The translations under genes were made by a program, and so were the position numbers. From the IMG/VR virus record IMGVR_UViG_2537561935_000023, positions 1-25,825 of that record: a stretch of DNA of 25,825 bases. One strand, given 5' to 3'. This document shows positions 1,419-25,825 of this stretch, in pieces; position 1 is the first letter of the stretch; the number at the start of each line of letters is the position of its first letter. Source of the DNA: a virus (taxonomy: Duplodnaviria > Heunggongvirae > Uroviricota > Caudoviricetes). The notes under the pieces were generated by a model that was given only the letters and a program-made list of their open reading frames with translations, had not been told where the DNA came from and searched no databases.

Positions 1419-3890
1419 TTAAAAATCAGCCTGACTCGGGATCAGTTTTTGCCAGATAGCTGAAACGTATTTTGCCTGGTAACGAGCGTCATCAAGTGCA
1501 TTATGGCGCTCACCTTCGAATGGGATAGCAGTTCTGGCATCGAAGTCTATGGCTTTCCCCAGCTCAACGATTGTGCGTACATCGCGATCGTTGTAGTAAC
1601 GCCACGGGCAGGGGATCCCCTGCCGCTCGTATGAACGGCGCAAAATAGTGTTGTCGAAGTTGGCTCCATTTCCCCAGACCTGAACAAAAAATTCACCGGA
1701 GTTTTCGTCGATAAATTCCCGCAATTGTAACAGTGCATCATCTAACGGGATTTCATCGGTCATAATGGCAGATTGCGCTTCGCGTGATTGTTTAAGCCAC
1801 CATTTAATGGTGTCCCGATCAATGACTCCGCCAGCAGTTTCCAGATCGATAGTCTTACTAAATTCCGGTCCCATATCTCCGGTTTGCGGATCGAAAAATA
1901 TTGCACCTATTGAGATAATCGGGGCATCGGGATTTTTTCCCATGGTTTCAAGGTCGATCATCAGATGAATCCCCGCTCTGCTGGTGGATGTGAGATTATG
2001 ATGACCGTTCGCCTTAATTAAGGGATCTGACGCCTCGCCAGTTTCACTATCGCTGGCATGATGCTGATTGCCGCCAGTGTTCTCCTTGTGCTGATGCGCA
2101 GTGCCTTCCATTTCCTCCGGATCATTTTCCTGAACTTCAGGCTGATTCTCTCCATCGAATATTTCCTGGTATGTTGCGTCACCCATCACCGCACCACAAT
2201 CAGGGCAGTTGCCGCCACCGCTCTGACCGCAGGCGGTGCAGATCTTTTCCGGTTCCTGTTGCACTACTGGTTCAGGTTGTTTCGTTTCTGGCTCGTTTTG
2301 TTGCGTATTTTGGCTGTTTTGTTCCGCTTTCTGGTCGTTCTGTTCCGTTTCTTGCTGGTTCTGGTTCGCAGAATCGCGGGTCTGGATCCCCTTAACCCAT
2401 TTCGGATCATTCGGGTCGCTAATCCCTTCAACAAATTCACCACGTGATACTGCAAGCAGTTCATCGGCGTCAGGCTGGCTGATATTGGCTGCCTGCATAA
2501 TTTTGTTTACTTCGTCAGCGGTAACTTTTACCGGTTCTGGCTGTGCGGTCGTGTCAGATGCACCAGTATTTTGTTGTGAACCTGAGTATGTACTGTTTTT
2601 GCGGGCGAAATATTCTTCTTTCGTGATTTCAGTAGCCCCGGCAGCCAGCGCCTTATCCAGACCAGAAAGTTTGTTTGCGCGACCGTATTTTTCGCCATCC
2701 TTGTCGGTGAAGAGGAAGTAGAACGGCCCCTCACGCTCTACAGATGGTTCGACTTCCACTTTGCATTCGGTTTTTTCGTTGTCCGGAATTGCCGTTTCCA
2801 CTGCATCAGTTTCTGGTACTGGCGACGAGAGAGTATCAGTTGCGCTCTGATTTGTTCCTTCATCTTCAAACACGCCCTTTGTAGTCAGGTATTCAGTAAT
2901 GTATTTGTTCAGTGCCACAGGATCTTTGTGAATGTCGATCGGACGTCCACGGACAAGGCCAAAAATAGTCTGGCGGTCGTAGCGAAGGGCATCAGGCTGT
3001 TTGCGCATCGATGCCGAGATACGCTTCCAGTCTTCGCGGTCGTTGTCGATAACTTCATTTTTTGCCCAGCGATGGATGCTGCCGTCAATGTTTCCGGCAT
3101 CCACATCACCAGGCCAGAGAGCGTAGGCCAGTTCGTCATCCAGTGTTTTCCATGTCTGCTTGTATTCGCGATGAATGACTGCAGTGACAGGGGAGATATT
3201 TTCTGCTGAGTTTTCAGTGTGCTGTCGGTTGACTCTGGCGCGGGCGAGATCAACAGCAGACGTGTATTTTCCGGTTTCCTTGCGTTCACCTTCGCGACGT
3301 TTTTTCCAGATGCGCATCTCTGCCTGAATTTCGGGCCATTTAGCTCCAGGCTTACATTTATGCTTAACCCACCCGATGGCATGCAACTTAAGTTCTGGAT
3401 ACATGGCGTTAACTTCTGGCATTTTCATCAACGCTTCAACGATATGTCCGTCGAATGTTGCCATGTCTTCCTGCAACAATTCCTGCGCGCTAATCACCAT
3501 ATCAACGGTGATGTTTTCACATGTGTCGAACTTAACCATGACAGCGTTCTGTACTTCAGGGGCCAGCTTGTCAAAAGTGACGTTCATCGGATCTGATTCA
3601 GTCTCAACCGGGACAAAGGAAGCAGACTCCTCATCCCAGCGGTTTTCCTGCATATATTCAGCATCCCAGGAATCGAGGGCAGGGCGGGGTATACCGGGTT
3701 TATCCTCGCAAACAAGAAATTTATAAGCGCAGTCCTGAGCAGCCGGATAATGCTCCAGGAATTGCCAGTGAAATTTTGCGCGGGCGCGACGTTCATCACC
3801 GGCTTCAATGGCAGTGGCTACAGCGACTGCACCTTCTTCCTTTATTGCCTGTTCGTCCGGAATGGCGGCGCAAATAAAGACTTTACTCAT
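1419..3890 (-). CDS. Large prophage exonuclease (823 aa): C-terminal DnaQ-like DEDDh 3'-5' exonuclease domain, central CxxC...CxxC zinc ribbon and Q/N/E-rich low-complexity linker
   Basis: C-terminal motifs MIDLETMG (Exo I, D-x-E), NGANFD (Exo II), HNALDDA (Exo III, H-x4-D); zinc ribbon CTACGQSGGGNCPDCG; repetitive DNA at about 2258-2378 encodes the QNQQETEQNDQKAEQN... linker; GAGG about 11 nt upstream of ATG at 3888-3890. Confidence 0.75.
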   Translation of the reverse strand: MSKVFICAAIPDEQAIKEEGAVAVATAIEAGDERRARAKFHWQFLEHYPAAQDCAYKFLVCEDKPGIPRPALDSWDAEYMQENRWDEESASFVPVETESDPMNVTFDKLAPEVQNAVMVKFDTCENITVDMVISAQELLQEDMATFDGHIVEALMKMPEVNAMYPELKLHAIGWVKHKCKPGAKWPEIQAEMRIWKKRREGERKETGKYTSAVDLARARVNRQHTENSAENISPVTAVIHREYKQTWKTLDDELAYALWPGDVDAGNIDGSIHRWAKNEVIDNDREDWKRISASMRKQPDALRYDRQTIFGLVRGRPIDIHKDPVALNKYITEYLTTKGVFEDEGTNQSATDTLSSPVPETDAVETAIPDNEKTECKVEVEPSVEREGPFYFLFTDKDGEKYGRANKLSGLDKALAAGATEITKEEYFARKNSTYSGSQQNTGASDTTAQPEPVKVTADEVNKIMQAANISQPDADELLAVSRGEFVEGISDPNDPKWVKGIQTRDSANQNQQETEQNDQKAEQNSQNTQQNEPETKQPEPVVQQEPEKICTACGQSGGGNCPDCGAVMGDATYQEIFDGENQPEVQENDPEEMEGTAHQHKENTGGNQHHASDSETGEASDPLIKANGHHNLTSTSRAGIHLMIDLETMGKNPDAPIISIGAIFFDPQTGDMGPEFSKTIDLETAGGVIDRDTIKWWLKQSREAQSAIMTDEIPLDDALLQLREFIDENSGEFFVQVWGNGANFDNTILRRSYERQGIPCPWRYYNDRDVRTIVELGKAIDFDARTAIPFEGERHNALDDARYQAKYVSAIWQKLIPSQADF

Positions 3891-3982
3891 TTTGTTTTAC
3901 CTCATTACAGATTTAAGGGTGAACAAATCCCTGCCATTGCTGGCATATAAGAATGAAAGCGGATGTTTATTACGGAACTGTT

Positions 3983-4174
3983 TTAAAGACCTGCCGGGAT
4001 TTCGTTATTATCCTGGTGAATAACTTTATCGACCGGGTAACAGTTACCGGGAATTTTCTGTTCGGTTGCTGCAGTCATACATTCCTGCATTGTCCTGTGA
4101 ACACTGACTGCAATATCAACTGGCTCTCCGGAAACAAGATAAACTGTCAGAACAAGCGCAAATGCTGAATTCAT
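3983..4174 (-). CDS. Small hypothetical protein (63 aa) with N-terminal hydrophobic signal/anchor segment
   Basis: ATG at 4172-4174 overlaps the stop of the upstream ORF in an ATGA arrangement (translational coupling); N-terminus MNSAFALVLTVYLVSG is hydrophobic; no family recognised. Confidence 0.4.
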   Translation of the reverse strand: MNSAFALVLTVYLVSGEPVDIAVSVHRTMQECMTAATEQKIPGNCYPVDKVIHQDNNEIPAGL

Positions 4175-4359
4175 TGTGCACATCCTTTTGGCATCAGACG
4201 TAAACGAGCCAGCATTGAAACAATGCATATTTTATTTAATAGCTCCCCTTCTTGTTTTCTCTTGTTAATGGCATCTTCAGTAAATACAGGGTTACTGATA
4301 GTGACACCAATTTCAAAACAACCTTCAGACGTATTAACGTTTGGTAATAACGTTTTCAT
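4171..4359 (-). CDS. Small hypothetical early-left protein (62 aa)
   Basis: Minus-strand ORF with GAGGA about 6 nt upstream of the ATG; ATGA stop/start overlap with the downstream small ORF; function unknown. Confidence 0.4.
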   Translation of the reverse strand: MKTLLPNVNTSEGCFEIGVTISNPVFTEDAINKRKQEGELLNKICIVSMLARLRLMPKGCAQ

Positions 4360-4410
4360 TATCGCGTCCTCAACAATGAATTTTGTGATGCAGTGCCTGG
4401 TGCCTCCAGG

Positions 4411-4438
4411 TGACGTTAACCAGTTAACAATTAACGTC
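4411..4438. promoter_or_regulatory. Operator-like palindrome (GACGTTAAC-cagTTAACaa-TTAACGTC) in the divergent control region between leftward early genes and rightward replication genes
   Basis: Near-perfect 9-bp inverted repeat plus a central GTTAAC palindrome, seen directly in sequence; positioned where lambdoid OL/OR operators would lie. Confidence 0.35.
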
Positions 4439-4502
4439 GGATATCCGGATTAGTGATTTCAGGTTGTATCGTGAGATCAGTGATGGAAAAAGTATTACGT
4501 AC

Positions 4503-4685
4503 ATGATCGCCGGGTTAAATAAAGAATATGGCGATGTGGTGGAATCCGGACTGCTTTTTGCAGATCCTGCCGTTGTAGATCGTGAAACTGACGAACTTAT
4601 AGAAAAAGCAATTGCTTTCAAGCTTGCGTATCGACAGCAATACCAACAAAAAGCTGGATGGAATTATGAGTCTTCTTTTTGCTGA
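4503..4685 (+). CDS. Hypothetical small protein (60 aa) overlapping the start of the replication gene
   Basis: ATG at 4503 in frame with ORF 4464..4685; 3' end overlaps the replication gene start (4666) by 20 nt; weak SD; no recognisable motif. Confidence 0.25.
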   Translation: MIAGLNKEYGDVVESGLLFADPAVVDRETDELIEKAIAFKLAYRQQYQQKAGWNYESSFC

Positions 4686-5631
4686 ACGCCCACTGGTTAT
4701 AAACACGCAGCTGGCAATGAAAATTGGCTTAAACGAAGCCATTGTTTTGCAACAACTGCACTACTGGTTGAGAGATACCAACTCCGGCATGGAATGTGAT
4801 GGTGTTCGCTGGATTTATAACACAACGGAACAATGGCTGGAACAGTTCCCATTCTGGTCAGAGTCAACGTTAAAGCGCGCGTTTGCAAGTCTGAAAACGC
4901 TGGGGCTTTTGCGTTGTGAAAAGCTCAATAAATCAAAGCGCGATATGACCAATTTCTACACGATCAACTACGGGAGCGAGCTTTTAGATGGTGGCAAATT
5001 GAGCGAATCCATCGGTTTAAAATGCGCCGCTCCATCAGGTCAAAATGACACGATGGAAGAGGTCAAAATGAAACGCTCCATTGGTTCAAAACGACTCAAT
5101 GTCATCGGGTCAAAATGGCCTGATGATCTTACAGAGAATACAACAGAGATTACTACAGAGAATAAAAAGACTTCTCGTCCGGAAGCTTCGCAACCGGACC
5201 CGCAGACGGTTGAACAGGATTTTTTAACCCGACACCCTGACGCGGTTGTGTTCAGTGCGAAAAAACGCCAGTGGGGCAGCCAGGAAGATTTGGCGTGTGC
5301 GCAGTGGATCTGGGGGCGAATCGTGAGTCTTTACGAGCAGGCCGCCAGCGATGATGGCGAGATTTCGCGACCGAAAGAACCCAACTGGACCGCATGGGCC
5401 AACGACGTGCGCACAATGCGGATGCTGGATGGCAGAACTCACAGACAAATTTGTGAAATGTTTGGTCGGGTGCAGCGGGATCCATTCTGGGTAAAAAATA
5501 TCATGAGTCCGTCAAAGCTTCGCGAAAAATGGGATGAACTGGTTATCCGCCTGGGGCGTTCGTCTGTACAGCGTTGTGTGAATCATATTTCTGAGCCGGA
5601 TACCGAAATTCCGCCGGGCTTCAGGGGGTAA
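4666..5631 (+). CDS. Phage replication initiation protein: N-terminal replisome-organiser-like winged-helix domain and C-terminal DnaT-like (primosomal protein 1) domain
   Basis: First ATG of the frame is 4666 (ORF-track start at 4612 is TTG); N-terminal segment LVINTQLAMKIGLNEAIVLQQLHYWL typical of phage replication proteins; C-terminus ...SEPDTEIPPGFRG matches the DnaT C-terminus (...SEPDSQIPPGFRG) as recalled. Confidence 0.7.
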   Translation: MSLLFAERPLVINTQLAMKIGLNEAIVLQQLHYWLRDTNSGMECDGVRWIYNTTEQWLEQFPFWSESTLKRAFASLKTLGLLRCEKLNKSKRDMTNFYTINYGSELLDGGKLSESIGLKCAAPSGQNDTMEEVKMKRSIGSKRLNVIGSKWPDDLTENTTEITTENKKTSRPEASQPDPQTVEQDFLTRHPDAVVFSAKKRQWGSQEDLACAQWIWGRIVSLYEQAASDDGEISRPKEPNWTAWANDVRTMRMLDGRTHRQICEMFGRVQRDPFWVKNIMSPSKLREKWDELVIRLGRSSVQRCVNHISEPDTEIPPGFRG

Positions 5632-5671
5632 GTGTTAATTTCTGGTCATGAGGTAATTTTCAGGAGGGCTT

Positions 5672-6094
5672 GTGGCAAAAGTTTTTACACAAGAAGAGCG
5701 GGAAAAAATTAAAGGGCAGGTTGTTGAACTCGTACGCCGGAGTGGGCGTGAGACGTTACGGCAACTGGAAGTCAAGACAGGTGCGACAAGATATCTGATG
5801 AGCGTTCTCGCAAGAGAGCTGGTTGCCAGCGGCGATGTATACAACTCTGGTTACGGGTTATTCCCGTCTGAACAGGCGCGTAAGGACTGGCAAAATGCCC
5901 GTAAAAAGCTCTCAAGGGCAAAGCTGAAGGAACCATCTGCGGTTGATCCGGACCTTATCTGGTCATTACCTGACGGAGAAATACGTCGTTACGACAGGCG
6001 TCATAATATGATTTGTACTGAGTGTCGTAAAAGCGAAGTTATGCAGCGCATATTGTCGTTTTATCAGGGGGATGTCCGGTATTTATTGAAGTGA
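5672..6094 (+). CDS. Hypothetical protein (140 aa), possibly DNA-binding/regulatory, downstream of the replication gene
   Basis: GTG start with GGAGG about 5 nt upstream; basic, helix-rich N-terminal half; family not recognised. Confidence 0.5.
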   Translation: MAKVFTQEEREKIKGQVVELVRRSGRETLRQLEVKTGATRYLMSVLARELVASGDVYNSGYGLFPSEQARKDWQNARKKLSRAKLKEPSAVDPDLIWSLPDGEIRRYDRRHNMICTECRKSEVMQRILSFYQGDVRYLLK

Positions 6095-6162
6095 CGAGAT
6101 TAAAGTGCATTAGTTCAGATGCAAATTGACATTTTGTGGCACAGGGTAGAGCTAGCGTGGTT

Positions 6163-6186
6163 GTCCGCTTTGTGCCAAGAGCGGAC
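6163..6186. repeat. Palindromic repeat, Y-type copy 1 (GTCCGCTTTGTGCCAAGAGCGGAC)
   Basis: 7-bp inverted arms GTCCGCT/AGCGGAC; 22 of 24 identical to the copy at 7379-7402; lies just beyond the 3' end of the GIY-YIG gene. Confidence 0.7.
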
Positions 6187-6223
6187 TTTGCAAAATGGGG
6201 GTTATTTCAATCAAAACGTAACG

Positions 6224-7168
6224 TCACAACCAGCCGACGCTCTCTCGCCATTTATAATTAGTAACTTTATCATTTTCGCTTATTTTTTTAGATATAGAGC
6301 GCGGCTCTCTTCCTAGATACTCAGATATTTCTATCGGGGACAAATCAAAATCAACAAGCATGACTCTAAGTTTTTCCATTTCCTTTAAAGTCCAAGGCTT
6401 GCCATAATTTTCATAAAGAGATACCTTATGCTCCCTGATAGTTCGCTTTCTCTGAGTTTCACTTTCCCTCTGAAAAATCTCGCTTTTAAATTGTGAACGG
6501 AACTCTTTACAGAAGTTGTTATCAGTTTTTTTGTTATATAGATTGCTAAAAATAAGCTGGGATGCCGGGTCTAAATCAGGTGTGTTAATAATGAAAACTT
6601 TGACCTTTTCCATATAGGGATATTCAATTTTACCCAATATGCTTAATTGCTTTATATTAAAAAAACCTCTCAAATCAAAAGATTTAATGAGCTTTGATTG
6701 GATTACACTTTCAATCCTGCTTGCATTTAAATAACAGTACTTTGCCATTGGAAGGGCCCATACTACCAGTTGAGGAATATATTTTTCTAATGCAATGCTC
6801 TGCCAATCAGTATCAAAGGTTTGGCTTTTTGCTAGCATGTTTTTCGGCAAATCAGAATACATTGTGGTAGATGCCCATATCTTATAATCATTCGCCAAGG
6901 CTTGATAGTATTTTGTGTGGTTATGAATTTTATAAGCTGACATGAAGCGATAAACGTCTTCGTCGTGACCAGCGTCGTAAATTGTTCGATTTCCTCTAAG
7001 ATAACCGTCGTAATGTTCGGTTATCCTTCTACCTACATTACAACTTACCCCAACGTAAACCACACGACTGAAAAGTCCTTTATGGACAATAAGATAAACT
7101 CCGCTACAGCCAGATTTCCTGGCCTCTGATAGAGAACCTAAAAATCTCCATTCCATAATTAAATCCAT
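6224..7168 (-). CDS. GIY-YIG nuclease-domain protein (314 aa) with a C-terminal putative helix-turn-helix region; AT-rich cargo gene
   Basis: N-terminal GVYLIVHKG...VVYVGVS.NVGRRITEHY matches the GIY-(about 10 aa)-YIG + Arg + Glu nuclease core; C-terminal ...WTLKEMEKL...SPIEISEYLGREPRSISKKI looks HTH-like; codon usage and AT content differ from flanking phage genes. Confidence 0.7.
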   Translation of the reverse strand: MDLIMEWRFLGSLSEARKSGCSGVYLIVHKGLFSRVVYVGVSCNVGRRITEHYDGYLRGNRTIYDAGHDEDVYRFMSAYKIHNHTKYYQALANDYKIWASTTMYSDLPKNMLAKSQTFDTDWQSIALEKYIPQLVVWALPMAKYCYLNASRIESVIQSKLIKSFDLRGFFNIKQLSILGKIEYPYMEKVKVFIINTPDLDPASQLIFSNLYNKKTDNNFCKEFRSQFKSEIFQRESETQRKRTIREHKVSLYENYGKPWTLKEMEKLRVMLVDFDLSPIEISEYLGREPRSISKKISENDKVTNYKWRESVGWL

Positions 7169-7336
7169 AATTATTGCTACTGTTTTTGTTTATCATTATT
7201 TTCGTGAAACTTCAACAATTTTATCCAAAAGCTAAGGGCAAAGACTTATATAATTATACTTGTCATCGTTAGCGATTATATAGAGTAGTGGCGCTGACCT
7301 GCTCCCTGGTGATTCACACAGAATGCTGTTAGTAAT

Positions 7337-7360
7337 GTCCGTTCCTCGCTCTCAGCGGAC
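7337..7360. repeat. Palindromic repeat, X-type copy 1 (GTCCGTTCCTCGCTCTCAGCGGAC)
   Basis: Terminal 5-bp inverted arms GTCCG/CGGAC around an asymmetric 14-bp core; 20 of 24 identical to 11550-11573 and 18 of 24 to 9320-9343. Confidence 0.65.
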
Positions 7361-7378
7361 CTTCAGCTCAGTGATATC

Positions 7379-7402
7379 GTCCGCTCTGTGCAAAGAGCGG
7401 AC
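7379..7402. repeat. Palindromic repeat, Y-type copy 2 (GTCCGCTCTGTGCAAAGAGCGGAC)
   Basis: Perfect 9-bp inverted arms with 6-bp spacer GTGCAA (10 bp including flanking C/G at 7378/7403); sits 18 bp after the X-type copy. Confidence 0.7.
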
Positions 7403-7715
7403 GTTGGTATGCAAGAGCCCTCCAAAAGTTGATGGTTGGTTTGCAGGGGGGCTTAAAGAAACTGCACTTATCAAGTTGAAGTTCTGTATTCAGCGAAATC
7501 GTAGCACTCTGACGATAAGTAACTCCGGTACTCCGCTCTTCGATGAAGAACCAGAGTAATCCCCCCGAAAAACCAGCGCATCAAAATTGGATCTTCAGCG
7601 GTAGCTTATCGGCTATCGGAAGTACAGGTGTGGATTCGTGGTGAATTGCTTTGATAATAAACGATTAATACGGAAAAACGCATTAATCATTTATTAGCTT
7701 TTAGTAAACCACAAT

Positions 7716-15730: not shown

Positions 15731-15947
15731 GTTAGAGTCTTTCAGTCTGCGATGATGGGAAATCCCGGAGTGACTGAAAGACGTTTAAGTTATGAATGAT
15801 CGCTTTTTTTTGCAAAATTGCTGTGCAGAAATACTAACCTTCGGGCAGGCGATCATTCATAAGCACTCTGCTTTTATTCCGATTAACTGTGGGTGGTTTG
15901 TTGGATAGAGTGCTTTCCTTACTGTATATATTGTTTCGCCCGCTTTT

Positions 15948-15972
15948 GCGGGCTTTTCTTTTCAAATCCCTT
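15948..15972 (+). terminator. Rho-independent terminator upstream of the holin-derived ORF
   Basis: GCCCGC-tttt-GCGGGC stem-loop followed by TTTTCTTTT. Confidence 0.55.
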
Positions 15973-16022
15973 TCATTTCTCAGTGTAAAACTACGCCATC
16001 CGTTATTTGCGGAGGTGAGGCT

Positions 16023-18185
16023 ATGAAATCCATGGACAAAATTTCAACGGGCATTGCCTATGGCACCTCCGCAGGCAGTGCTGGCTACTGGTTTTTACAG
16101 CTGCTCGATAAAGTCACGCCCTCACAGTGGGCAGCAATAGGTGTGCTGGGTATCCGCACCGGCGGGCGCGTGCTGGCGGTAAACAGCCAGACCCGGACGC
16201 TGACGCTCGACCGTGAAATCACGCTGCCATCTTCCGGCACCACGCTGATAAGCCTGGTTGACGGGCAGGGGAGTCCGGTCAGCGTGGAGGTTCAGTCCGT
16301 CACCGACGGCGTGAAGGTGAAAGTGAGCCGTGTTCCTGACGGCGTTGCTGAATACAGCGTATGGGGGCTGAAGCTGCCGACGCTGCGCCAGCGCCTGTTC
16401 CGCTGCGTGAGTATCCGTGAGAACGACGACGGCACGTATGCCATCACCGCCGTGCAGCATGTACCGGAAAAAGAGGCCATCGTGGATAACGGGGCGCACT
16501 TTGACGGCGACCAGAGCGGCACGGTAAATGGTGTCACGCCGCCAGCGGTGCAGCACCTGACCGCAGAAGTCACCGCAGACAGCGGGGAATACCAGGTGCT
16601 GGCCCGCTGGGACACGCCGAAGGTGGTGAAGGGCGTGAGCTTCCTGCTTCGCCTGACCGTGGCAGCGGATGACGGCCGTGAGCGGCTGGTCAGCACGGCC
16701 CGGACGACGGAAACCACTTACCGCTTCACACAACTGGCTCTGGGGAACTACAGGCTGACAGTCCGGGCAGTAAATGCGCGGGGGCAGCAGGGCGATCCGG
16801 CGTCGGTATCGTTCCGGATTGCCGCACCGGCAGCGCCGTCGCGGATTGAGCTGACGCCGGGCTATTTTCAGATAACCGCCACGCCGCATCTTGCGGTTTA
16901 TGACCCGACGGTACAGTTTGAGTTCTGGTTCTCGGAAAAACGGATTGCGGATATCAGGCAGGTTGAAACCAGCGCGCGTTATCTTGGTACGGCACTGTAC
17001 TGGATAGCCGCCAGTATCAATATCAAACCGGGCCATGATTATTATTTTTACGTTCGCAGTGTGAACACCGTTGGCAAATCGGCATTCGTGGAGGCTGTCG
17101 GTCAGCCGAGTGATGATGCATCAGGCTATCTGGATTTTTTCAAAGGCGAGATAGGGAAAACCCATCTGGCTCAGGAGCTGTGGACGCAGATTGATAACGG
17201 TCAGCTTGCGCCTGACCTGACTGAAATCAGGACGTCCATAACGGATGTCAGCAATGAAATAACACAGACCGTCAATAAGAAACTGGAAGACCAGAGTGCA
17301 GCGATCCAGCAGATACAGAAGGTTCAGGTTGATACAAATAATAACCTGAACAGCATGTGGGCAGTGAAGCTGCAGCAGATGCAGGACGGACGCCTTTATA
17401 TTGCGGGTATCGGTGCCGGTATTGAGAACACCCCTGACGGCATGCAGAGTCAGGTGCTGCTGGCAGCAGACAGGATTGCGATGATTAATCCTGCGAATGG
17501 CAACACAAAGCCGATGTTTGTTGGTCAGGGCGATCAGATATTCATGAATGAAGTGTTCCTGAAACGCCTGACGGCCCCCACCATTACCAGCGGCGGTAAT
17601 CCTCCGGCATTTTCCCTGACATCAGACGGGAGACTGACGGCGAAAAATGCGGATATCAGTGGCAGTGTGAATGCGAACTCAGGAACGCTCAACAATGTCA
17701 CGATTAACCAGAACTGTACGATTAAGGGCATGCTGGAGGCGACCCAGGTCAGAGGAGATTTCGTTAAAGCTGTATCAAAAGCCTTCCCGAAAAAAGTCGG
17801 TACGTGGGGTAACACGGAAACACCAAACGGTACGGTTACAGTAACCATCAGCGATGATCATAACTTTGACCGCCAGATTATTATTCCGCCCATTATTTTT
17901 AACGGTATAGCGTATGACGATCCGGGGAGCGGAAATAACCCAGGAGGCACGCGATACACGGGTTATGGTTTTGAAGTTCGCAAAAACGGCGTATTAATCG
18001 CATCCAGAGAAACTAAAGGGGCCATTCCCGGTAGTTACAGTGCAGTTATTGATATGCCGAGTGGCAGGGGAAGCGTCACTCTGGAGTTTAAGATTTTCCA
18101 GAAAGGCAATCAGGGGGCAGGCAATATCACCGACTGTACGGTGATTGTGACCAAAAAAGCGGCTTCCGGCATCAGTATTCGTTGA
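16023..18185 (+). CDS. Chimeric ORF: N-terminal about 43 aa of a phage 21-type pinholin fused in frame to the C-terminal about 677 aa of a lambda J-type host-specificity protein (deletion remnant)
   Basis: N-terminus [43 protein letters not shown] matches the S21 pinholin N-terminus as recalled; from about nt 16152 the protein is collinear with the lambda J C-terminal half (e.g. ...[40 protein letters not shown]...); GGAGGTGAGG SD. Confidence 0.8.
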
Positions 18186-18255
18186 AATATTTATAACCCC
18201 AATAAAGGGCGTCAGGAATGACGCCTTTTTTATTGCAGAAAAGCGAGAGGTAATT

Positions 18256-18651
18256 ATGCGTAAAGTTTGTGCAGCAATTTTGTCCGCAGCCATTTGTCTG
18301 GCCGTATCCGGTGCGCCTGCATGGGCGTCTGAACATCAGTCCACGCTGAGCGCGGGGTATCTTCATGCCCGGACCAACGTTCCCGGCAGTGATGATCTGA
18401 ACGGGATTAACGTGAAATATCGTTATGAGTTTACGGATACGCTGGGGCTGGTGACGTCATTCAGCTATGCAGGAGACAAGAATCGCCAGCTGACCCGTTA
18501 CAGCGATACCCGCTGGCATGAAGATTCCGTGCGTAACCGCTGGTTCAGCGTGATGGCGGGGCCGTCTGTGCGCGTGAATGAATGGTTCAGCGCGTATGCG
18601 ATGGTACTGGTGGAAGAACTATCGAGCAAGCACGTGCGAACTTGCGGGTAA
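18256..18651 (+). pseudogene. lom: 3'-truncated lom (Lom/Ail/PagC-family outer-membrane protein) remnant
   Basis: Signal peptide plus about 115 aa collinear with lambda Lom up to ...SAYAM (nt about 18603); the frame then runs into unrelated tail-fibre-derived sequence and stops. Confidence 0.75.
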
Positions 18652-20357
18652 TGTATGAGCAAAAAGCTGGCCTTGCTAATACTGACCTAAACACCCTTAC
18701 CGGTGAATATTCTGGTTTCTATCAACAACCAACGAGCGCTTACGCAACAGAAGAGTTAAATTACCCAATCGGTCTGGCGGGCGCTTTAATAGTGCTCCAA
18801 ACGAGAGCCAACACTGCTTCTTCCTGCGTTCAGGTGTACCACCCTTATAATAATCCGGGAATTACTTATAGACGAATATATGAAGGAGGTAGCGGTACCT
18901 GGTCTGAATGGAAGAGAGATGTATCAACAGAAAGGGTTGAAGAGGGAAAAGAAACAACTTACGTATATTCTACGTATTCTTCAGGCGCACCACGCTTACA
19001 GGTTTCCAAATCTGGTTTGTGGGGTTGTCATAATGGCACTGGCTGGTTGCCATTAGCTGTTGGGCAAGGAGGTACAGGTGCGACAACAGTAGAAGATGCG
19101 CGAAACAACTTAAGTCTTGGCGAAAGTAGCGCAGTTAAATTTAAAAACCTTACTTTAACCGAAGCGCTCGACACGACATTAGGACTGCTTACAAAAACAG
19201 GACGAGACTGGAACGCTCAGCATACTGATAACGTCGACAAATTTAGACCAATTGCAGGCAGTACAAACGGCCCGGCAGGCTCTATGGTTCTTGGCGGCAT
19301 TCATGTTCAATTTAGTAAAAATTATGCTGTGCAGTTCGGAGGCCGCAATTCCGGTTTTTGGGGAAGAACAATTGAAAATGGAACGACGCAGGAATGGAAG
19401 AAATTACTAACAGTAGACGATCTCAATTCATCTACCGATCTTGCTGTCAGGTCATTAACCACATCTAACCCGATAAAATCTGGCGGAGGGCGGATTGATG
19501 TCCTTGGAAGCACGTCAGACTATAGCAAAATGGATTGCTTTGTACGTGGGTTTGATAGCACCGGTAATTCTCTCGCGTGGGCGTTGGGTTCATCAGTCGG
19601 CGTAAGTAAGATGCTGTCGCTAAAAAATTTCTTTAGCGGAGCTGAGATACTGCTAAATGGTAATGACGGCGCGGTTCAACTCAAAACAGGTGCTGTTAAC
19701 GGTGCTAAAGCGCAGGCGCTCACTATCAACAAGGATGAGGTTAACTCAACTGTTGATTTAACTCTTACAAAACAAACAGGGACTGGCAATCGTTTTGTTT
19801 TACAGAACTTAGGTAATACAGAACTACCATTTGCTGTCAAGGTGTGGGGTTCAGGTGATCGACAAAACGTTTTTGAGGTTGGAACGTCTGCCGCGTATCT
19901 GTTTTATGCTCAAAAAACATCGTCAGGTCAGCTGTTTGATGTAAACGGTGCTATTAACTGTACAACACTGAATCAGTTATCAGACCGCGAGCTGAAAGAC
20001 AATATTCAGATTATCAGTGACGCAACCGAAGCTATCCGTAAAATGAACGGGTACACCTACACACTTAAGGAAAACGGACTGCCTTACGCTGGTGTTATTG
20101 CACAGGAAGCAATGGAGGCAATACCGGAAGCGGTAGGCTCATTCACTCATTACGGTAAAGAGTTGCAGGGACCAACGGTTGACGGCAATGAATTACGTGA
20201 AGAAACACGTTATCTGAATGTTGACTACGCCGCCGTGACGGGCTTACTTGTTCAGGTCGCCCGTGAAACAGATGATCGCGTTACCGCGCTGGAAGAAGAA
20301 AACGCAGAATTAAAACAAAGATTATCTGCAATTGAGGCGGCGCTTGCCTCTAAATAA
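18604..20357 (+). pseudogene. 5'-truncated side tail fibre gene with C-terminal intramolecular-chaperone (S74-type) domain
   Basis: Tail-fibre motifs GGTGATTVEDARNNL and TIEQARANL; C-terminal ...SDRELKDNIQ...MNGYTYTLKENG...VIAQEA...LEEENAELKQRLSAIEAALASK typical of auto-cleaving chaperone domains; no native start, and the only ATG (18582) lies in lom-derived sequence. Confidence 0.7.
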
Positions 20358-20361
20358 TATT

Positions 20362-20386
20362 AAGGGGCTGTGCGCCCCGTTTTATT
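20362..20386 (+). terminator. Rho-independent terminator after the tail fibre remnant
   Basis: GGGGC-tgtgc-GCCCC followed by GTTTTATT. Confidence 0.55.
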
Positions 20387-20393
20387 GGGTAGG

Positions 20394-20687
20394 ATGAAAA
20401 TGGGTATAACACCTTTCCTTCATGCACTTTGTGCTGTGGCTGCGCAGATACTGGTGGGGCTTTTTACCGGAAACTGGGTTTACGGAGCGATAGCCAGTTG
20501 TACGTTCTTCATTGCGGGCGAACACACCCAAGCATAATATCGCTGGATTGAAATGTTCGGGCATGGCAAGCGGATTAACATGCCGTGGTGGGGCGGTTTT
20601 GATCCACGCGCATGGGATGTGGCAAGCCTGATGGATTTTGCTGTGCCGATGGTAGCGTGTCTTCTGATCTGGCTGTTGATCCGTTGA
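20394..20687 (+). pseudogene. Small hydrophobic protein gene interrupted by an in-frame TAA (about 45 + 50 codons)
   Basis: MKMGITPFLHALCAVAAQILVGLFTGNWVYGAIASCTFFIAGEHTQA-stop-YRWIEMFGHGKRINMPWWGGFDPRAWDVASLMDFAVPMVACLLIWLLIR; both halves share one frame and hydrophobic character. Confidence 0.45.
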
Positions 20688-20696
20688 ACATAAAAA

Positions 20697-20730
20697 GCCG
20701 CAGCAACTTGCCATGGCAGGATACTGCGGC
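20697..20730. terminator. Hairpin between the convergent pseudogene (+) and RT gene (-); likely terminator for the RT operon
   Basis: GCCGCAG ... CTGCGGC 7-bp stem enclosing the palindrome TGCCATGGCA; on the minus strand it is followed by TTTTTA. Confidence 0.45.
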
Positions 20731-20794
20731 TGGTTTGTGAGTTTAAATAGTGTGTTTATTGCGATATATTTTAATGACTTAATGGATTACATAT

Positions 20795-22165
20795 CTATGA
20801 TATTCCTGAAATATCCTCTTCAAGCTCTTTTACTGATTTCGCAATTTTAAATTTAAACTTCCTCTCTATTTCACTATTGCTAAGTTTTTTTTCCTTCTCT
20901 TTACCTATCCACATAGAAACAAGTTCTCGTTTCTGAGATATATGTAGATTGTCAAAGTTAGGTATGTATTTAAAAGTCTCCGCTCTACCTCTGCGGAGTT
21001 CATAGAAAGTTTTAATCAAAGATTTTGGTTTTATTTCTGATGAAAGGCCGAATCGGCGGATAAGATTATTGATAGTATGATTAACAGAGCGAAGTTGAGC
21101 TGTTGAGGTTATTTGTGAGAAGTACGATACCCATCCCAATCGTTTACCTTCAAACACACATCCCGTAATTCTGAGATTTAGTTTCCACTGACAATATGCA
21201 ACAGCTCGTTCTTTATCACGCTTACTTTTAGCTTGTAGTAGAGCGTGCCTATATGCAGTAAAAATTTTTGCTAAGGATGACTCAAATCTAAGAATGCTCT
21301 CATGTTTTATCAATAATTCTCGATTTTCTATGTGGTATCCCAAAAAGTTAAAACTTTCATCCAAACTGCCTACTTTGGATTTTGAGTTCTCTTCATTTAA
21401 TGGATGTGGGTTTAAATTTAATGATTGAAGCTTATCAATGATATGAGAAGCTATTTTTGTTGCTTGATATTTTGGTGTTAAAATAAGAATGTCATCAACG
21501 TATCGCATGTACCATATGTCATGCATTTTATTGATTTCATCATCGAAATTAGATAGTGATATTTCAGCTAAAATGTTTGATATCGCTAATCCCTGAGGTA
21601 CTCCTCTGGTATTATTAGGGATACCTTTGCTTCCTGTGGTTCCACTTACAGTAGGCACGATTAATGATGATGTTATTAACTGTCTAATTTCTTTTTTTCT
21701 AATTTTATTTTTTATTGCATTAATTATCAATTTATGTTCAATTGAAGGATAGAAACTTTTAAGATCTATTTTTGCATATTCAGCATATAGACTGTTGTTT
21801 AATGCTTCTTTCAATGAGTCAATTACTGTATGTGGTAGTTTTAATCTGGACTTAGGATATATTTCCGTAAGGCATTCACAGAGAGCTCTAAGAGTAATTC
21901 TGTCCCTAGCAGTTGGTATGGAAATCTGTCTGGGTGTAGAGTTAGCGCCTTTAGATATTAATTTTTCTTTATATGCTGTAAATTTGTAATTGCCAGAATT
22001 AACCTTTTCAAAAATGAAAGTGATCTCATTTTTTATTGTCAAATCAAGTTTTGATGGGCGAATCCGATCTATGCCAATCGCTCCTGATTCTTTGATTTTT
22101 TCAGAGTATACTTTTAGAAGATTTTTTTTCGAGAATGACTTTTTAAAAATTCTGCTTGCAGTCAT
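20795..22165 (-). CDS. Reverse transcriptase (456 aa), defence-type/retron-like, with about 200-aa C-terminal extension
   Basis: RT motifs read directly: R.ISIPTARDRITLRAL (motifs 1-2), KIDLKSFYPSIEH (motif A), GVPQGLAISNILAEI (motif B'), YMRYVDDILIL (YxDD motif C), LNLNPHPLNEENSKSKVG...FLGYHI (motif D/E); AT-rich; first ATG at 22163-22165 (ORF-track start 22171 is TTG); 23-nt overlap with the upstream gene. Confidence 0.85.
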   Translation of the reverse strand: MTASRIFKKSFSKKNLLKVYSEKIKESGAIGIDRIRPSKLDLTIKNEITFIFEKVNSGNYKFTAYKEKLISKGANSTPRQISIPTARDRITLRALCECLTEIYPKSRLKLPHTVIDSLKEALNNSLYAEYAKIDLKSFYPSIEHKLIINAIKNKIRKKEIRQLITSSLIVPTVSGTTGSKGIPNNTRGVPQGLAISNILAEISLSNFDDEINKMHDIWYMRYVDDILILTPKYQATKIASHIIDKLQSLNLNPHPLNEENSKSKVGSLDESFNFLGYHIENRELLIKHESILRFESSLAKIFTAYRHALLQAKSKRDKERAVAYCQWKLNLRITGCVFEGKRLGWVSYFSQITSTAQLRSVNHTINNLIRRFGLSSEIKPKSLIKTFYELRRGRAETFKYIPNFDNLHISQKRELVSMWIGKEKEKKLSNSEIERKFKFKIAKSVKELEEDISGIS

Positions 22166-22694
22166 AGTCAATCCAAAGATATATTAATGGGAGTATATAA
22201 AGTGCGGCAGTAATAAATATTCGAAGTAATATCCATAAAATAACAATTATTTTTTCTTTTTGTGTGGGGATCCTCGTCTTAAGTCCAACTTGAGTTACCC
22301 TTGAAATTTTATCATCTATGTCACGGTGATTCTCAACCTCATTGAGCAAATTAAAATATTTTTCTTTCTGTTCAAGAGATAACTGTTGACTGGTGGTAAT
22401 GTCAAAATAGAGTCGCTGTAGTGCAATATAATTCCTTCTCATGGCTATTGCTCGACCACGAAAATCTAGGTTAGATACGATCAGAGAAATACCCAGTAGA
22501 GCCACTGAAAGTATCGCCGCAACGACATCTGTATTATCTCCTAGAACCTTTGGAAATCGCAACGTTACAATTGAAAGTACCGCACTCAATATAGCATACC
22601 AAACGAGGATAAATTGAGAGTGTTTTTCAAGCCATTCTAGTCGATGGTGCGCTTGGATACGTGCTTTATATGTAAACCAAATATTGTCATGCAT
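22143..22694 (-). CDS. Small membrane protein (183 aa), SLATT-like, with an N-terminal two-helix hairpin and a C-terminal TM segment; putative effector partner of the RT
   Basis: Hydrophobic helices FILVWYAILSAVLSIVTL, VVAAILSVALLGISLIVSNL and IIVILWILLRIFITAALYILPLIYLWI; AGGA SD 7 nt upstream of ATG; 3' end overlaps RT start; SLATT assignment is inference from topology and context. Confidence 0.7.
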   Translation of the reverse strand: MHDNIWFTYKARIQAHHRLEWLEKHSQFILVWYAILSAVLSIVTLRFPKVLGDNTDVVAAILSVALLGISLIVSNLDFRGRAIAMRRNYIALQRLYFDITTSQQLSLEQKEKYFNLLNEVENHRDIDDKISRVTQVGLKTRIPTQKEKIIVILWILLRIFITAALYILPLIYLWIDYDCKQNF

Positions 22695-22699
22695 AAAAG

Positions 22700-22900
22700 A
22701 TCCTTTTTAAAAGCGGAAGGGGCAGGATATATTGGAACCGTTGAACATCCTGCCCGGCAGGATCAGTGAGCATAAGCTCAACAGTAAAATATTACTGTTC
22801 ATTATCAGAGCCGCCCTTGCATGCGCAAGAGGAAAAACCTGCCCCATCCCTTTGAATTATTACAATTTAATGATCTTAAAGTCAATACAAGTGAATGGTG
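22700..22900 (-). ncRNA. Candidate structured non-coding RNA/leader upstream of the SLATT-RT operon
   Basis: No ORF; dense nested inverted repeats: GGGCAGGAT (22720-22728) / ATCCTGCCC (22747-22755) / GGCAGGAT (22757-22764), GGGGCAGG (22719-22726) vs CCTGCCCC (22838-22845), ACAGTA-aaatat-TACTGT (22781-22798), CTTGC-atgc-GCAAG (22816-22829). Confidence 0.3.
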
Positions 22901-22916
22901 TCCAGAGATGATGAAC

Positions 22917-23165
22917 TTAATGAACAAACCACTCGTCAGCAGACTCCCAGGTATCTTTCAGAGTCTCCTGAACAAAAGTTTTAGCTGAATCTTTATCAGC
23001 GGTGCGCGTAACAGAAAGGCCATCGTTGCTGGTGGCTTTTACGATCACTTCTACATCGTCATAACGTTTACTGATGCGTCGGGTTAATTCTTCCTTTAAC
23101 GCATCCACAGCACCGGTTGGCATTTTAGTCATTTTTTCTTTGGCTATGCAGATTTCAATACGCAT
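22917..23165 (-). CDS. dinI: DinI-family SOS protein (82 aa)
   Basis: MRIEICIAK...AVDAL..EL.RRI...LSV......D......[15 protein letters not shown] collinear with E. coli DinI as recalled; GGGGA SD. Confidence 0.85.
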
Positions 23166-23177
23166 AAAAGTCCCCTA

Positions 23178-23225
23178 CACTGTATTTGTATACAGTATTA
23201 TTTTTAACTGTATGGATAAACAGTG
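23178..23225 (-). promoter_or_regulatory. Two tandem LexA (SOS) boxes in the dinI-like promoter
   Basis: Box 1 at 23178-23197 caCTGTatttgtatACAGta (17 of 20 to consensus TACTGTATATATATACAGTA); box 2 at 23206-23225 aaCTGTatggataaACAGtg (CTGT-N8-ACAG). Confidence 0.75.
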
Positions 23226-24323
23226 TCAAGAGGTCTTATTTCTGCTCCTTTGGAGTTCTTCAAAACGATTATGTAAAGATTTCGGATACAGTTCGGTATA
23301 TACCTGCCATAGCACGTTTAATGAACGATGCCCTGTAACCTGAGCGACTTCCTCAATACTAAAACCAGCCTCAAATAAGCGACTTGCCCCTTCTCTACGC
23401 AAATCATGGTATCTCAGATCTTTAATACCTAATTTGCTTCTTACCCTCTGAAATCCTGCGGTAACAGAAGTGCTGTTATATGGAAAAATGAATTCTGATT
23501 TTTTGGGTTGTCGCTGGACGATATCCCAGGCTTCCCCAAGCAAGGCAACTTTCATATGGTTGCCTTCCTTTTTACGTGGATCTTTCCTGTCTCTTACTAG
23601 TATAGATTTTTGTTCCTGGTCGAGATCTTCCCATCGTAACCGGCATACTTCTCCGATTCGCATACAGGACCACACAGAAAATTTGAGGATATCAACGAAC
23701 GGAATTTTTGAGCATTTATGAGTAGATCGTTGTTGAAGGCCTTCAATGAGCATGTTCAGTTCATCAGATGCTGGTCTACGATTACGACGGTTTGATTTAC
23801 CAATCAAACCGAGTTTAAGTAGATATGGACGAGCGCTTTTCGCCGGGTTTGATGTGTAATTGATTCCGTATACAGGTTTTGCCGCATCCAGAACACTGCC
23901 AAGATAACTAACATCGTGGCTGACTGTTGCTGGGCCTGCACCAGCGTTGTTTCTTAGCCTGCAATGTTCAATTACGTCATTTTCTGTCAGTTCAGATAGT
24001 TTGATCGCGGAGATGTCACTATCCATAAGCAGTTCCAGCACATATCTTTTAGTACGGCCTGCTTTACCTCCGGCATTTGGGTCATTTAAATATTTGTGTA
24101 GTAAGTCACGGACTGTAAGTCCGTCAACAGCATTTGATGATGGAATGCCATATAGATCTAATTCCATCACTTTCTGTGCGCCCCATGTTTTGGCATGAGC
24201 ATGTTTAGGGAATGTTTTGCTTTCCCTGTAAGTGATAACACCTTTTTCTTTGATAATCACATTACAGCGATAGCGTGGTGTGCCATCGGATTTTAGTCGT
24301 TTCTCTATGTTATAGTACGCCAT
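23226..24323 (-). CDS. int: Tyrosine integrase (365 aa) adjacent to and divergent from dusA: dusA-associated integrase type
   Basis: C-terminal tyrosine-recombinase motifs (...RYHDLRREGASRL...VTGHRSL..L.VY); GAGG SD; 5' end about 90 bp from the dusA reading frame. Confidence 0.85.
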   Translation of the reverse strand: MAYYNIEKRLKSDGTPRYRCNVIIKEKGVITYRESKTFPKHAHAKTWGAQKVMELDLYGIPSSNAVDGLTVRDLLHKYLNDPNAGGKAGRTKRYVLELLMDSDISAIKLSELTENDVIEHCRLRNNAGAGPATVSHDVSYLGSVLDAAKPVYGINYTSNPAKSARPYLLKLGLIGKSNRRNRRPASDELNMLIEGLQQRSTHKCSKIPFVDILKFSVWSCMRIGEVCRLRWEDLDQEQKSILVRDRKDPRKKEGNHMKVALLGEAWDIVQRQPKKSEFIFPYNSTSVTAGFQRVRSKLGIKDLRYHDLRREGASRLFEAGFSIEEVAQVTGHRSLNVLWQVYTELYPKSLHNRFEELQRSRNKTS

Positions 24324-24456
24324 TACACGACCTCGTTATTTCGGGTTCCCATAAAGCGTGGGAACCTGTGCGGGAACCTAACGCGAGAAAAATAGCCTGA
24401 AATGTTCAAAAATGCACGATAATCCTGAAACACAGAAAACTAATCAAACCAGCGTG

Positions 24457-25449
24457 ATGCCTGAAAAAACTGGCGCTTACTGGAGTTCTCGGTTTAGCAT
24501 TGCTCCTATGCTCGACTGGACGGACAGACATTGCCGCTATTTCTTGCGTCTGCTTTCCCGCAATACGTTGCTGTATACCGAAATGGTGACCACAGGGGCG
24601 ATTATTCACGGTAAAGGTGATTACCTGGCGTACAGTGAAGAAGAACATCCGGTAGCGTTGCAACTCGGCGGTAGCGATCCGGCGGCGCTGGCACAGTGTG
24701 CGAAGCTGGCAGAAGCGCGTGGATATGATGAGATCAACCTGAATGTCGGCTGCCCGTCTGACCGGGTGCAGAACGGCATGTTTGGTGCGTGTCTGATGGG
24801 TAATGCGCAGCTGGTTGCCGACTGCGTGAAAGCGATGCGCGATGTGGTGTCGATTCCAGTGACGGTGAAAACGCGTATTGGCATCGATGACCAGGACAGC
24901 TATGAATTTCTCTGCGATTTCATCAACACCGTTTCCGGCAAAGGCGAGTGTGAGATGTTTATCATCCACGCACGTAAAGCCTGGCTTTCGGGGTTAAGCC
25001 CGAAAGAAAACCGTGAAATCCCGCCGCTCGATTATCCGCGTGTGTATCAACTGAAGCGTGACTTTCCGCATCTGACAATGTCGATTAACGGTGGTATCAA
25101 GTCGCTGGAAGAGGCCAAAGCACACCTGCAACATATGGATGGCGTGATGGTCGGGCGCGAGGCGTATCAGAATCCGGGTATTCTGGCGGCGGTAGACCGG
25201 GAGATCTTTGGTTCCTCGGATACCGATGCCGATCCAGTGGCGGTAGTGCGCGCCATGTATCCGTACATTGAGCGTGAACTCAGCCAGGGGACGTATCTCG
25301 GCCATATTCCCCGGCATATGTTGGGCTTGTTCCAGGGTATTCCTGGCGCGCGGCAGTGGCGGCGTTATTTAAGTGAAAATGCCCATAAAGCGGGTGCAGA
25401 CATTAATGTGCTGGAACACGCGCTCAAACTGGTGGCGGATAAGCGTTAA
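24457..25449 (+). CDS. dusA: tRNA-dihydrouridine synthase A (DusA), 330 aa from ATG 24457; the open frame extends upstream to 24412 into element-derived sequence
   Basis: Near-identical over most of its length to E. coli DusA as recalled (…[17 protein letters not shown]…NLNVGCP…HARKAWL…); the N-terminal about 25 residues differ from K-12 as recalled. Confidence 0.9.
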
Positions 25450-25531
25450 CTTTTCACCAAAAAGTAGTCAAATTCACCACGCCCTGCGCACCGTCGCGGG
25501 GCATTTTGCTGTTAAATCAATAGATTATTTT

Positions 25532-25546
25532 TGGCATGATTCTTGT
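25532..25546 (+). promoter_or_regulatory. Candidate sigma-54 promoter of pspG (TGGCATG-N4-TTGT)
   Basis: GG/-24 and TTGT/-12-like elements with correct spacing about 37 nt upstream of the pspG ATG; pspG is a PspF/sigma-54 regulon member by established knowledge. Confidence 0.4.
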
Positions 25547-25582
25547 AATGCCAGCAAGAGATTTCATATTTGGGAGAGCATC

Positions 25583-25825
25583 ATGCTGGAACTACTTTTT
25601 GTGTTTGGCTTTTTTGTCATGCTGATGGTCACCGGCGTTTCGTTGCTGGGCATTATCGCCGCGCTGGTTGTGGCGACGGCCATTATGTTCCTCGGCGGTA
25701 TGCTGGCATTGATGATTAAGTTGCTGCCGTGGTTACTACTGGCGATTGCGGTGGTGTGGGTTATTAAGGCGATTAAAGCACCAAAAGTGCCGAAATATCA
25801 GCGTTATGACCGCTGGCGTTACTAA
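25583..25825 (+). CDS. pspG: Phage shock protein G (PspG), 80 aa
   Basis: MLELLFVFGFFVMLMVTGVSLLGIIAALVVATAIMFLGGMLALMIKLLPWLLLAIAVVWVIKAIKAPKVPKYQRYDRWRY matches E. coli PspG as recalled; canonical position downstream of dusA. Confidence 0.9.
   Translation: MLELLFVFGFFVMLMVTGVSLLGIIAALVVATAIMFLGGMLALMIKLLPWLLLAIAVVWVIKAIKAPKVPKYQRYDRWRY

Follow-up and report, generated by a model that had tools for sequence, protein, structure and literature searches.

A prophage dinI unit with putative tandem LexA operators appears to host an independently promoted DRT10 cassette

Results

Gene content of the locus

The window analysed here, a viral sequence of 25,825 nucleotides, contains an integrase gene, a dinI-like gene, a SLATT_5 effector gene and a reverse transcriptase (RT) gene, all on the minus strand (Table 1). 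The DinI profile match covers 63 of 63 profile positions, and the product aligns over its full length with Escherichia coli DinI (PDB 1GHH, residues 1–79, E = 4e-13), with conservation of the C-terminal helix TWESADxWFV. The int–dinI segment shares 97% identity with its counterparts in phage mEp460 and in many Stx and lambdoid phages; the homology with mEp460 and the Stx phages ends exactly at the dinI stop, at position 22917. An initial sequence-only reading of the locus had placed dinI and the SLATT–RT pair in the same direction and 222 bp apart, and this is correct (dinI stop at 22917, SLATT ATG at 22694, all on the minus strand).

The SLATT and RT open reading frames overlap at 22143–22165, with the RT start codon (ATG) at 22165. 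The RT carries a YVDD motif, and its C-terminal serine, S456, is invariant in the RT alignment; the priming serine described by Tang et al. is likewise S456 (PMC12632851). DRT10 systems are tripartite: an ncRNA of about 137–143 nt, encoded just upstream of SLATT, templates tandem-repeat cDNA, whose synthesis is protein-primed (PMC12632851; bioRxiv 10.64898/2026.04.29.721553). Judged by its gene and ncRNA content, the combination of RT, SLATT_5 and upstream ncRNA in the window is a DRT10 (UG17) defence system; the experiments that demonstrate tandem-repeat cDNA and phage defence concern its published homologues.

Table 1. Features of the dinI–DRT10 locus, ordered from the dusA side
Feature	Position	Strand	Evidence and remarks
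dusA	24412–25449		Adjoins the integrase gene
Tyrosine integrase gene	23226–24323	minus	dusA-inserted lambdoid element; Pfam Phage_integrase 8e-21
−35 hexamer, dinI promoter	23224–23229	minus	TTGACA; promoter scan; also annotated in mEp460
Distal LexA box (predicted)	23206–23225		Minus-strand reading CACTGTTTATCCATACAGTT; fills the −35/−10 spacer
Distal CTGT-N8-ACAG core	23208–23223		CTGTATGGATAAACAG
−10 hexamer, dinI promoter	23200–23205	minus	AAAAAT; promoter scan
Proximal LexA box (predicted)	23178–23197		Minus-strand reading TACTGTATACAAATACAGTG; between −10 and ribosome-binding site
Proximal CTGT-N8-ACAG core	23180–23195		CTGTATTTGTATACAG
dinI-like gene	22917–23165	minus	82 aa; Pfam DinI PF06183 1e-19; Shine–Dalgarno AGGGGA at 23171–23176
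DRT10 promoter (predicted)	22856–22885	minus	TTGACT 22885–22880, 18 nt, TG 22864–22863, AATAAT 22861–22856
DRT10 ncRNA	22716–22848	minus	About 135 nt; basal stem enclosing four stem-loops; fold and covariation
SLATT_5 two-transmembrane effector gene	22143–22694	minus	Pfam SLATT_5 1e-28; PADLOC RTasSLATT 1.5e-56
UG17 (DRT10) RT gene	20795–22165 (ORF to 22171)	minus	456 aa; PADLOC RT_UG17 1e-158; Pfam RVT_1
Intrinsic terminator	20692–20731	minus	Hairpin 20731–20696 and U-run; directly after the RT gene

Putative LexA operators in the dinI promoter

Exactly two CTGT-N8-ACAG palindromes occur in the whole window, and both fall inside the interval 23166–23225, where the sequence-only reading had reported them. 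For a sequence of this size 0.34 sites would be expected by chance, and two or more arose in 4 of 100 shuffles of the window. We scored the sites against the E. coli 20-mer consensus (TACTGTATATATATACAGTA), of which CTGT-N8-ACAG is the 16-bp core. The proximal 20-mer matches at 17 of 20 positions, with three mismatches, a quality that no site attained in the 100 shuffles and that bears out its earlier description as near consensus; the distal 20-mer matches at 15 of 20 positions, with five mismatches.

The two boxes are framed by a sigma-70-like promoter on the minus strand, TTGACA-18 nt-AAAAAT (23229–23200), which has 10 of 12 hexamer matches in a promoter scan and an imperfect −10 hexamer. 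The distal box lies within the promoter spacer, and the proximal box sits 3′ of the −10 hexamer and 5′ of the Shine–Dalgarno sequence and the ATG (23165), covering the start region. Both thus lie at sigma-70 promoter elements, as expected of LexA operators that block initiation. With this promoter around them and a downstream reading frame that is DinI by both Pfam and the 1GHH alignment, their assignment to the promoter of a dinI-like gene holds, as does their reported contact with the 3′ end of the integrase gene, whose TGA stop codon falls within the −35 hexamer. More than one LexA box in a promoter, as at lexA, recN and the colicin genes, usually goes with tight repression and late or strong induction. 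The boxes lie 21 bp apart in the lexA promoter and overlap in colicin promoters, whereas the spacing here is 28 bp from centre to centre.

The boxes are strongly conserved. Among dinI promoters from IMG/VR and metagenome loci with upstream sequence, 65 of 66 keep both strict boxes, and the sole exception carries an insertion within the proximal box. Across 23 distinct promoter haplotypes, none of the 16 half-site positions (CTGT/ACAG) varies, compared with 3 of 16 central N8 positions and 28 of 44 other positions (half-sites versus other positions, Fisher 4e-6); for the −35-to-ATG stretch only, our own count gives about 17 variable positions among 33 others. The boxes are also present at dinI in IHE3034, M45 and ST131, and in IAI39 the distal box reads CTGT-N8-CCAG.

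We considered whether the boxes might be chance AT-rich palindromes that LexA does not bind. Two sites somewhere in the window are not beyond the reach of shuffling, as noted above, but a site with three or fewer consensus mismatches is; moreover, both sites lie in one promoter, that of a dinI gene, their half-sites are invariant amid variable flanks, and homologous prophage dinI promoters are LexA-controlled by experiment. We therefore regard a chance origin as very improbable. Equally improbable is an action mainly on int, as a roadblock or in the 3′ processing of int transcripts. The int stop does overlap the −35 hexamer, and no terminator parts int from dinI, but dinI has this tandem-box promoter also in prophages without an integrase gene upstream of it (at prfC in IHE3034 and M45, and at yecD in ST131), so the boxes travel with dinI and not with int. 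The hairpins that the palindromes could form are, in addition, weak, AU-rich and without a U-run.

Because the quality and placement of the operators fit, the boxes are conserved and LexA-regulated prophage dinI genes have precedents, SOS (LexA) control of dinI is very likely on the sequence evidence, and ordinary. We infer that LexA binds both palindromes, which we take as putative operators of the prophage dinI promoter.

Variants of this promoter region occur in other loci. In one isolate (02A16CRGN003, locus L099), ISKox3 (ISL3 family) has inserted into the AT-rich middle of the proximal box, where it duplicated an 8-bp target (23184–23191), and parts the promoter and distal box from dinI. 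In locus L138 the promoter is replaced from the same point, probably through the same kind of insertion. A human-gut metagenome contig (L136, 1190–3250) carries two copies of dinI about 1.75 kb apart, each with tandem LexA boxes, and DRT10 comes after the second copy.

A conserved promoter and a template ncRNA between dinI and SLATT

The sequence-only reading had treated the 222 bp between dinI and SLATT as a leader. Its length was right, but the spacer is not empty: it holds a predicted promoter and a structured ncRNA, both of which that reading had missed. The segment 22704–22850 folds with −57 kcal/mol (z = −4.4 against shuffles; z = −3.5 for the whole spacer). We established the DRT10 ncRNA by comparative alignment, since Rfam 15 does not include it; a scan of 20300–23400 with Rfam 15 returned no DRT10 ncRNA model and only a chance microRNA match. 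The comparison set comprised 14 DRT10 loci from Xenorhabdus, Photorhabdus, Buttiauxella, Pseudomonas and Stutzerimonas. The alignment supports a five-helix structure of 34 pairs that is 99.4% paired, with compensatory changes at 14 pairs, compared with about 50% pairing in slid controls. The template loop of the window ncRNA, CAA-CGGUUC-CAA, has the A-B-A′ form, from which the predicted cDNA repeat is GAACCGTTG. Template loops vary widely among 101 homologous DRT10 loci.

The DRT10 promoter reads TTGACT-18-TGtAATAAT (22885–22856) and is without LexA boxes. Its −10 element ends about 7 nt before the basal stem of the ncRNA in all 15 aligned DRT10 loci. DNA homology between the window and the 14 loci from other genera extends from the RT stop to 22849, and in the closest of them (Xenorhabdus and Photorhabdus) to 22885. 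All 14 lack genes for DinI and for this integrase, and in each of them the 600 nt upstream are free of LexA-like boxes. Because the −10 element is conserved before the ncRNA in all aligned loci, including those of other genera without dinI, the cassette appears to bring its own conserved promoter. This agrees with published work, in which the DRT10 ncRNA is transcribed independently from its native promoter and cDNA synthesis is constitutive (PMC12632851; bioRxiv 10.64898/2026.04.29.721553).

The cassette lies between dinI and the dinI terminator

In cargo-less phages a GC-rich hairpin stands 66–103 nt past the dinI stop, followed in mEp460 by a UUUUUCUUUUU tail. Changes in the stem are compensatory between variants, and the hairpin is kept in all cargo-less variants, with U-runs of variable quality. 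This conservation was established by inspection and alignment; a simple terminator scan missed the bulged dinI terminator, and a stricter script called it in 6 of 79 IMG/VR loci. In the window, alignment with mEp460 and IMG/VR loci shows that the homologous hairpin (20731–20692) is the terminator directly after the RT gene. The 71 nt past the dinI stop are unstructured (−3 kcal/mol, z = +1.7), and the simple scan, which misses the bulged dinI terminator, found no minus-strand terminator in 20500–24500. The earlier observation that no strong terminator separates dinI from SLATT is thus confirmed.

The cassette, from promoter to RT stop (about 22916–20785), therefore occupies the space between the dinI stop and the dinI terminator. 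Because no terminator lies between dinI and the cassette and a dinI-type hairpin follows the RT stop, DRT10 is, as read from the sequence, nested in the dinI unit, in the order PdinI[LexA ×2]-dinI-[P_DRT10-ncRNA-SLATT-RT]-dinI terminator. With the dinI terminator displaced past RT and none in the junction, read-through from the SOS promoter would be the structural default.

The space between dinI and the tail-fibre gene is a cargo hotspot, as seen in five further IMG/VR loci. From their N termini, other co-oriented inserts look like acyltransferases and a type III effector, and there is also a 231-aa Cys-rich protein; unlike DRT10, all of these lie 3′ of the dinI terminator hairpin. A small membrane-protein gene 3′ of the tail fibre (20370–20714, plus strand) is split in the window by an internal stop into reading frames at 20370–20537 and 20553–20687; it is intact (95–100 aa) in related phages, is recorded as a pseudogene in RefSeq and has no Pfam match.

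An IS2 element with a 5-bp duplication (22911–22915) is found exactly between the dinI stop and the DRT10 promoter in loci L098 (MS20649), L067, L104 and L125 and in the genome matches H3, H4 and H26 (APEC O78), where it physically uncouples the cassette from the LexA promoter.

A 95%-identity allele with a dinI pseudogene occurs in loci L208 (IAI39) and L209 (ST131 MB1159; region 5040–5480). The pseudogene is frameshifted, contains in-frame stops and has lost 8 nt at its end; the LexA-box promoter and DRT10 are intact. At 99% identity or more this allele is present in at least 54 genomes, mostly ST131, and an exact-pattern search of viral contigs found none. We considered the intact promoter before a dead gene as a sign of selection for the promoter and rejected the argument: its carriers are for the most part clonal, and the promoter segment is a mosaic between the two contexts.

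A sister allele without the LexA promoter

The window cassette has the same ncRNA–SLATT_5–UG17 RT order and Ser456 as Eco3DRT10 (Tang et al. 2025, PMC12632851) and the UG17-A DRT10 (Sanchez-Nieto et al. 2026). Two loci, L111 and L117, carry a cassette 97–98% identical to that of the window with an Eco3-type template, CAAUGAUUC; reverse-complementing their template CAATGATTC gives the published Eco3DRT10 repeat, GAATCATTG. These loci are linked to Eco3DRT10 by that published 9-nt repeat, by the length of the ncRNA and by S456. By contrast, the window template CAACGGUUC (read as CAACGGTTC at the Eco3 template position) would give the repeat predicted above; its loop differs at two bases from the Eco3 loop, CAA-UGAUUC-CAA.

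The two alleles also differ upstream. The window allele keeps a complete dinI and the LexA promoter, whereas the Eco3-type loci (1–1750) retain only the last ~130 nt of dinI, with neither LexA boxes nor dinI promoter; a divergent pair of genes for an XRE-family HTH protein and an ImmA-IrrE metallopeptidase takes the place of int–dinI. Because they retain this 3′ remnant, the dinI junction would be ancestral, and because they lack the LexA promoter, that promoter would be dispensable for a functional sister system. Neither DRT10 paper (Tang et al. 2025; Sanchez-Nieto et al. 2026) mentions dinI, LexA or SOS, and the linkage between dinI/SOS and DRT10 is so far unreported.

Distribution in E. coli and make-up of the window

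The cassette (at least 90% identity) is present in 188 of 5,426 complete E. coli genomes, and a query that runs from the ncRNA through dinI to the promoter has at least 80% coverage in 181 of these 188. The version with the dusA-type integrase is confined to 57 genomes. The dinI–DRT10 pair lies at prophage ends at dusA, at prfC (IHE3034, M45 and IAI39) and at yecD/aspS (ST131).

The window is not found as one contiguous stretch in any complete E. coli genome. Positions 1375–20303 match, at 98%, a Qin/Rac-like defective prophage elsewhere in the chromosome, with int, xis, exonuclease, dicB, hokD, rem and tail-fibre remnants. Positions 18602–25825 match the dusA-linked element, and the overlap with the 1–20303 part consists of tail-fibre sequence. 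The window, which has an integrase at each end, looks like a recombinant of two prophages or an inversion, or else an assembly chimera. The Qin-like part also contains, 3′ of the antiterminator gene, a cluster of four tRNA genes called by ARAGORN (15421–15730; Met-CAT, Lys-TTT, Thr-TGT and Gly-TCC); the homologous region in RefSeq has Ile, Thr and Gly only.

SOS elements near other DRT10 loci

We surveyed 101 DRT10 loci with an ncRNA match, grouped into 55 upstream contexts. Strict LexA boxes numbered 9 in 116 kb upstream and 3 in 113 kb downstream, and only 3–4 of the 55 contexts had boxes upstream. Strong upstream boxes were confined to three contexts, namely dinI, Buttiauxella and the metagenomic locus L173. 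We rejected a general association between DRT10 and LexA, because 9 versus 3 strict boxes is too weak for enrichment. Individual contexts make the recurrence of SOS elements near DRT10 suggestive. In Buttiauxella sp. B2 (L004, 1394–3320; also L127), a umuD–umuC operon with the LexA box TACTGTATATAAATACAGTT lies directly upstream of DRT10 and is co-oriented with it, and no terminator-like structure was found in the 150-nt gap between umuC and the DRT10 promoter. In L173, DRT10 and an ABC-3C (MC3) defence system are divergently oriented, and the gap between them holds a LexA box of perfect consensus (3099–3118), 206 nt upstream of the ncRNA. In L121, DRT10 lies between a gene for an SOS-response-associated peptidase (SRAP) and a convergent umuDC with a LexA box.

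These contexts bear on whether read-through from PdinI is a selected, physiologically important input, through which damage or phage-induced ssDNA would raise DRT10 and alter defence or toxicity. The three contexts just described would fit such an input, as would the nesting of the cassette before the dinI terminator, the junction kept in 181 of 188 E. coli genomes at three integration sites, and published work in which SbcB and an SSB-like phage trigger connect DRT10 activity with the metabolism of ssDNA. Against it stand the cassette's own promoter, conserved in every aligned DRT10 locus, the lack of a LexA box within 600 nt in all 14 loci from other genera, the few boxes in the upstream contexts and their small excess over the downstream sequence, the Eco3-type allele without PdinI, and natural IS2 insertions that part dinI from the cassette; the conserved junction, moreover, could be explained by a single ancestral insertion and dinI-anchored recombination. 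On balance, we consider a selected input unlikely.

Discussion

The explanation that we favour overall, and consider probable, is a LexA-operated dinI unit that hosts an independently promoted DRT10 cassette, with SOS read-through probably adding expression. Before induction, LexA dimers bound at the spacer and start-site boxes would exclude RNA polymerase from the dinI promoter; after DNA damage, RecA-stimulated LexA cleavage would free the promoter and DinI would be made. A small SOS-inducible dinI unit of this kind stands at the end of many lambdoid prophages, past the tail-fibre genes and oriented against them. The present lineage would have gained a compact DRT10 cassette, inserted precisely between the dinI stop and the dinI terminator. 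Basal expression would come from the cassette's own conserved, LexA-box-free promoter, and during the SOS response transcripts from the derepressed dinI promoter, with no terminator ahead of RT, would probably add to transcription of SLATT and RT and of an extended ncRNA.

The boxes are a new instance of a known arrangement, the LexA-controlled prophage dinI. In the Salmonella prophages Gifsy-1, -2 and -3, dinI heads a LexA operon with an antirepressor gene and irsA (Lemire et al. 2011, PMC3121763; Merida-Floriano et al. 2021, PMC8072944); the unit responds to DNA damage, induction is 5–23-fold, and the LexA box lies 19 nt from the ATG (PMC3121763; PMC8072944). As in Gifsy, the window has co-oriented genes 3′ of a LexA-promoted dinI with no separating terminator. 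In Gifsy, the downstream genes, which drive prophage induction, need the LexA promoter; the DRT10 cassette is defence cargo with its own predicted promoter and does not share that dependence. Gifsy also has one box, whereas the window has two, in a unit at the tail-fibre end of the prophage and, in this window, beside int.

LexA control has been reported for the dinI-like gene of PhiKO2 and inferred for that of Serratia phage OS31 (PMC7556043). As in the window, a near-consensus LexA box lies just 5′ of dinI in both, and the gene is found past the tail genes in the opposite orientation; OS31 has a coupled gene 3′ of dinI. The chromosomal dinI of E. coli, which is 49-fold induced, likewise codes for a protein of the DinI family and is closely preceded by a near-consensus LexA box. 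Unlike the window, PhiKO2, OS31 and the E. coli chromosomal gene have a single box, different cargo and no RT system. The closest relative, mEp460 (JQ182728), is 97% identical to the window in int, dinI and promoter; the promoter is annotated in its record and the LexA boxes are not. There, dinI is followed by the terminator and then by a convergent tail-fibre gene, with no cargo.

The sequence-only reading had proposed that SOS may control the RT operon through the dinI promoter. The route that it described is supported, with no intervening terminator and the dinI terminator after RT; a need for it is not. It had also named an independent promoter in the leader as a point against its proposal, together with termination before SLATT: such a promoter is predicted from the sequence at 22885–22856, and no terminator was found between dinI and RT. 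Since the literature describes DRT10 as constitutive and no LexA promoter is present in the Eco3-type allele, SOS input would be dispensable, and an SOS boost of DRT10 is plausible but not required. We give about even chances to a measurable rise of the SLATT and RT transcripts under SOS. Much of the read-through could be halted by the ncRNA structure with the GCUUUU behind it, or by Rho on the ~220 untranslated nucleotides, and a 5′-extended ncRNA made by read-through may be non-functional. The analysis shows the anatomy of the locus, its conservation, the cassette's own promoter and ncRNA and the displaced terminator; we infer both read-through and any effect on defence.

Given that LexA-controlled prophage dinI genes are already established, the boxes alone add little. 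The anatomy of the locus corrects the first reading of it: the supposed leader consists of the putative DRT10 promoter and the template ncRNA, and the cassette shares the terminator of dinI. The locus also offers a cheap test case for a DNA-damage input to a defence system that has been described as constitutive, with ssDNA-dependent activation. Sequenced strains provide natural controls, namely IS2 between dinI and the cassette, ISKox3 in the proximal box and the Eco3-type allele, which lacks the dinI promoter. A bolder picture, which we hold as a tentative and rather unlikely one, is that DRT10, through its nesting between the tandem-box dinI promoter and the dinI terminator, has become part of the SOS response in the lambdoid prophages of E. 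coli, that its own ssDNA product might feed RecA, with DinI tuning the loop, and that the umuDC and orphan-box contexts reflect selection for SOS coupling. If this were so, DNA damage or phage-generated ssDNA would derepress PdinI and raise SLATT, RT and ncRNA.
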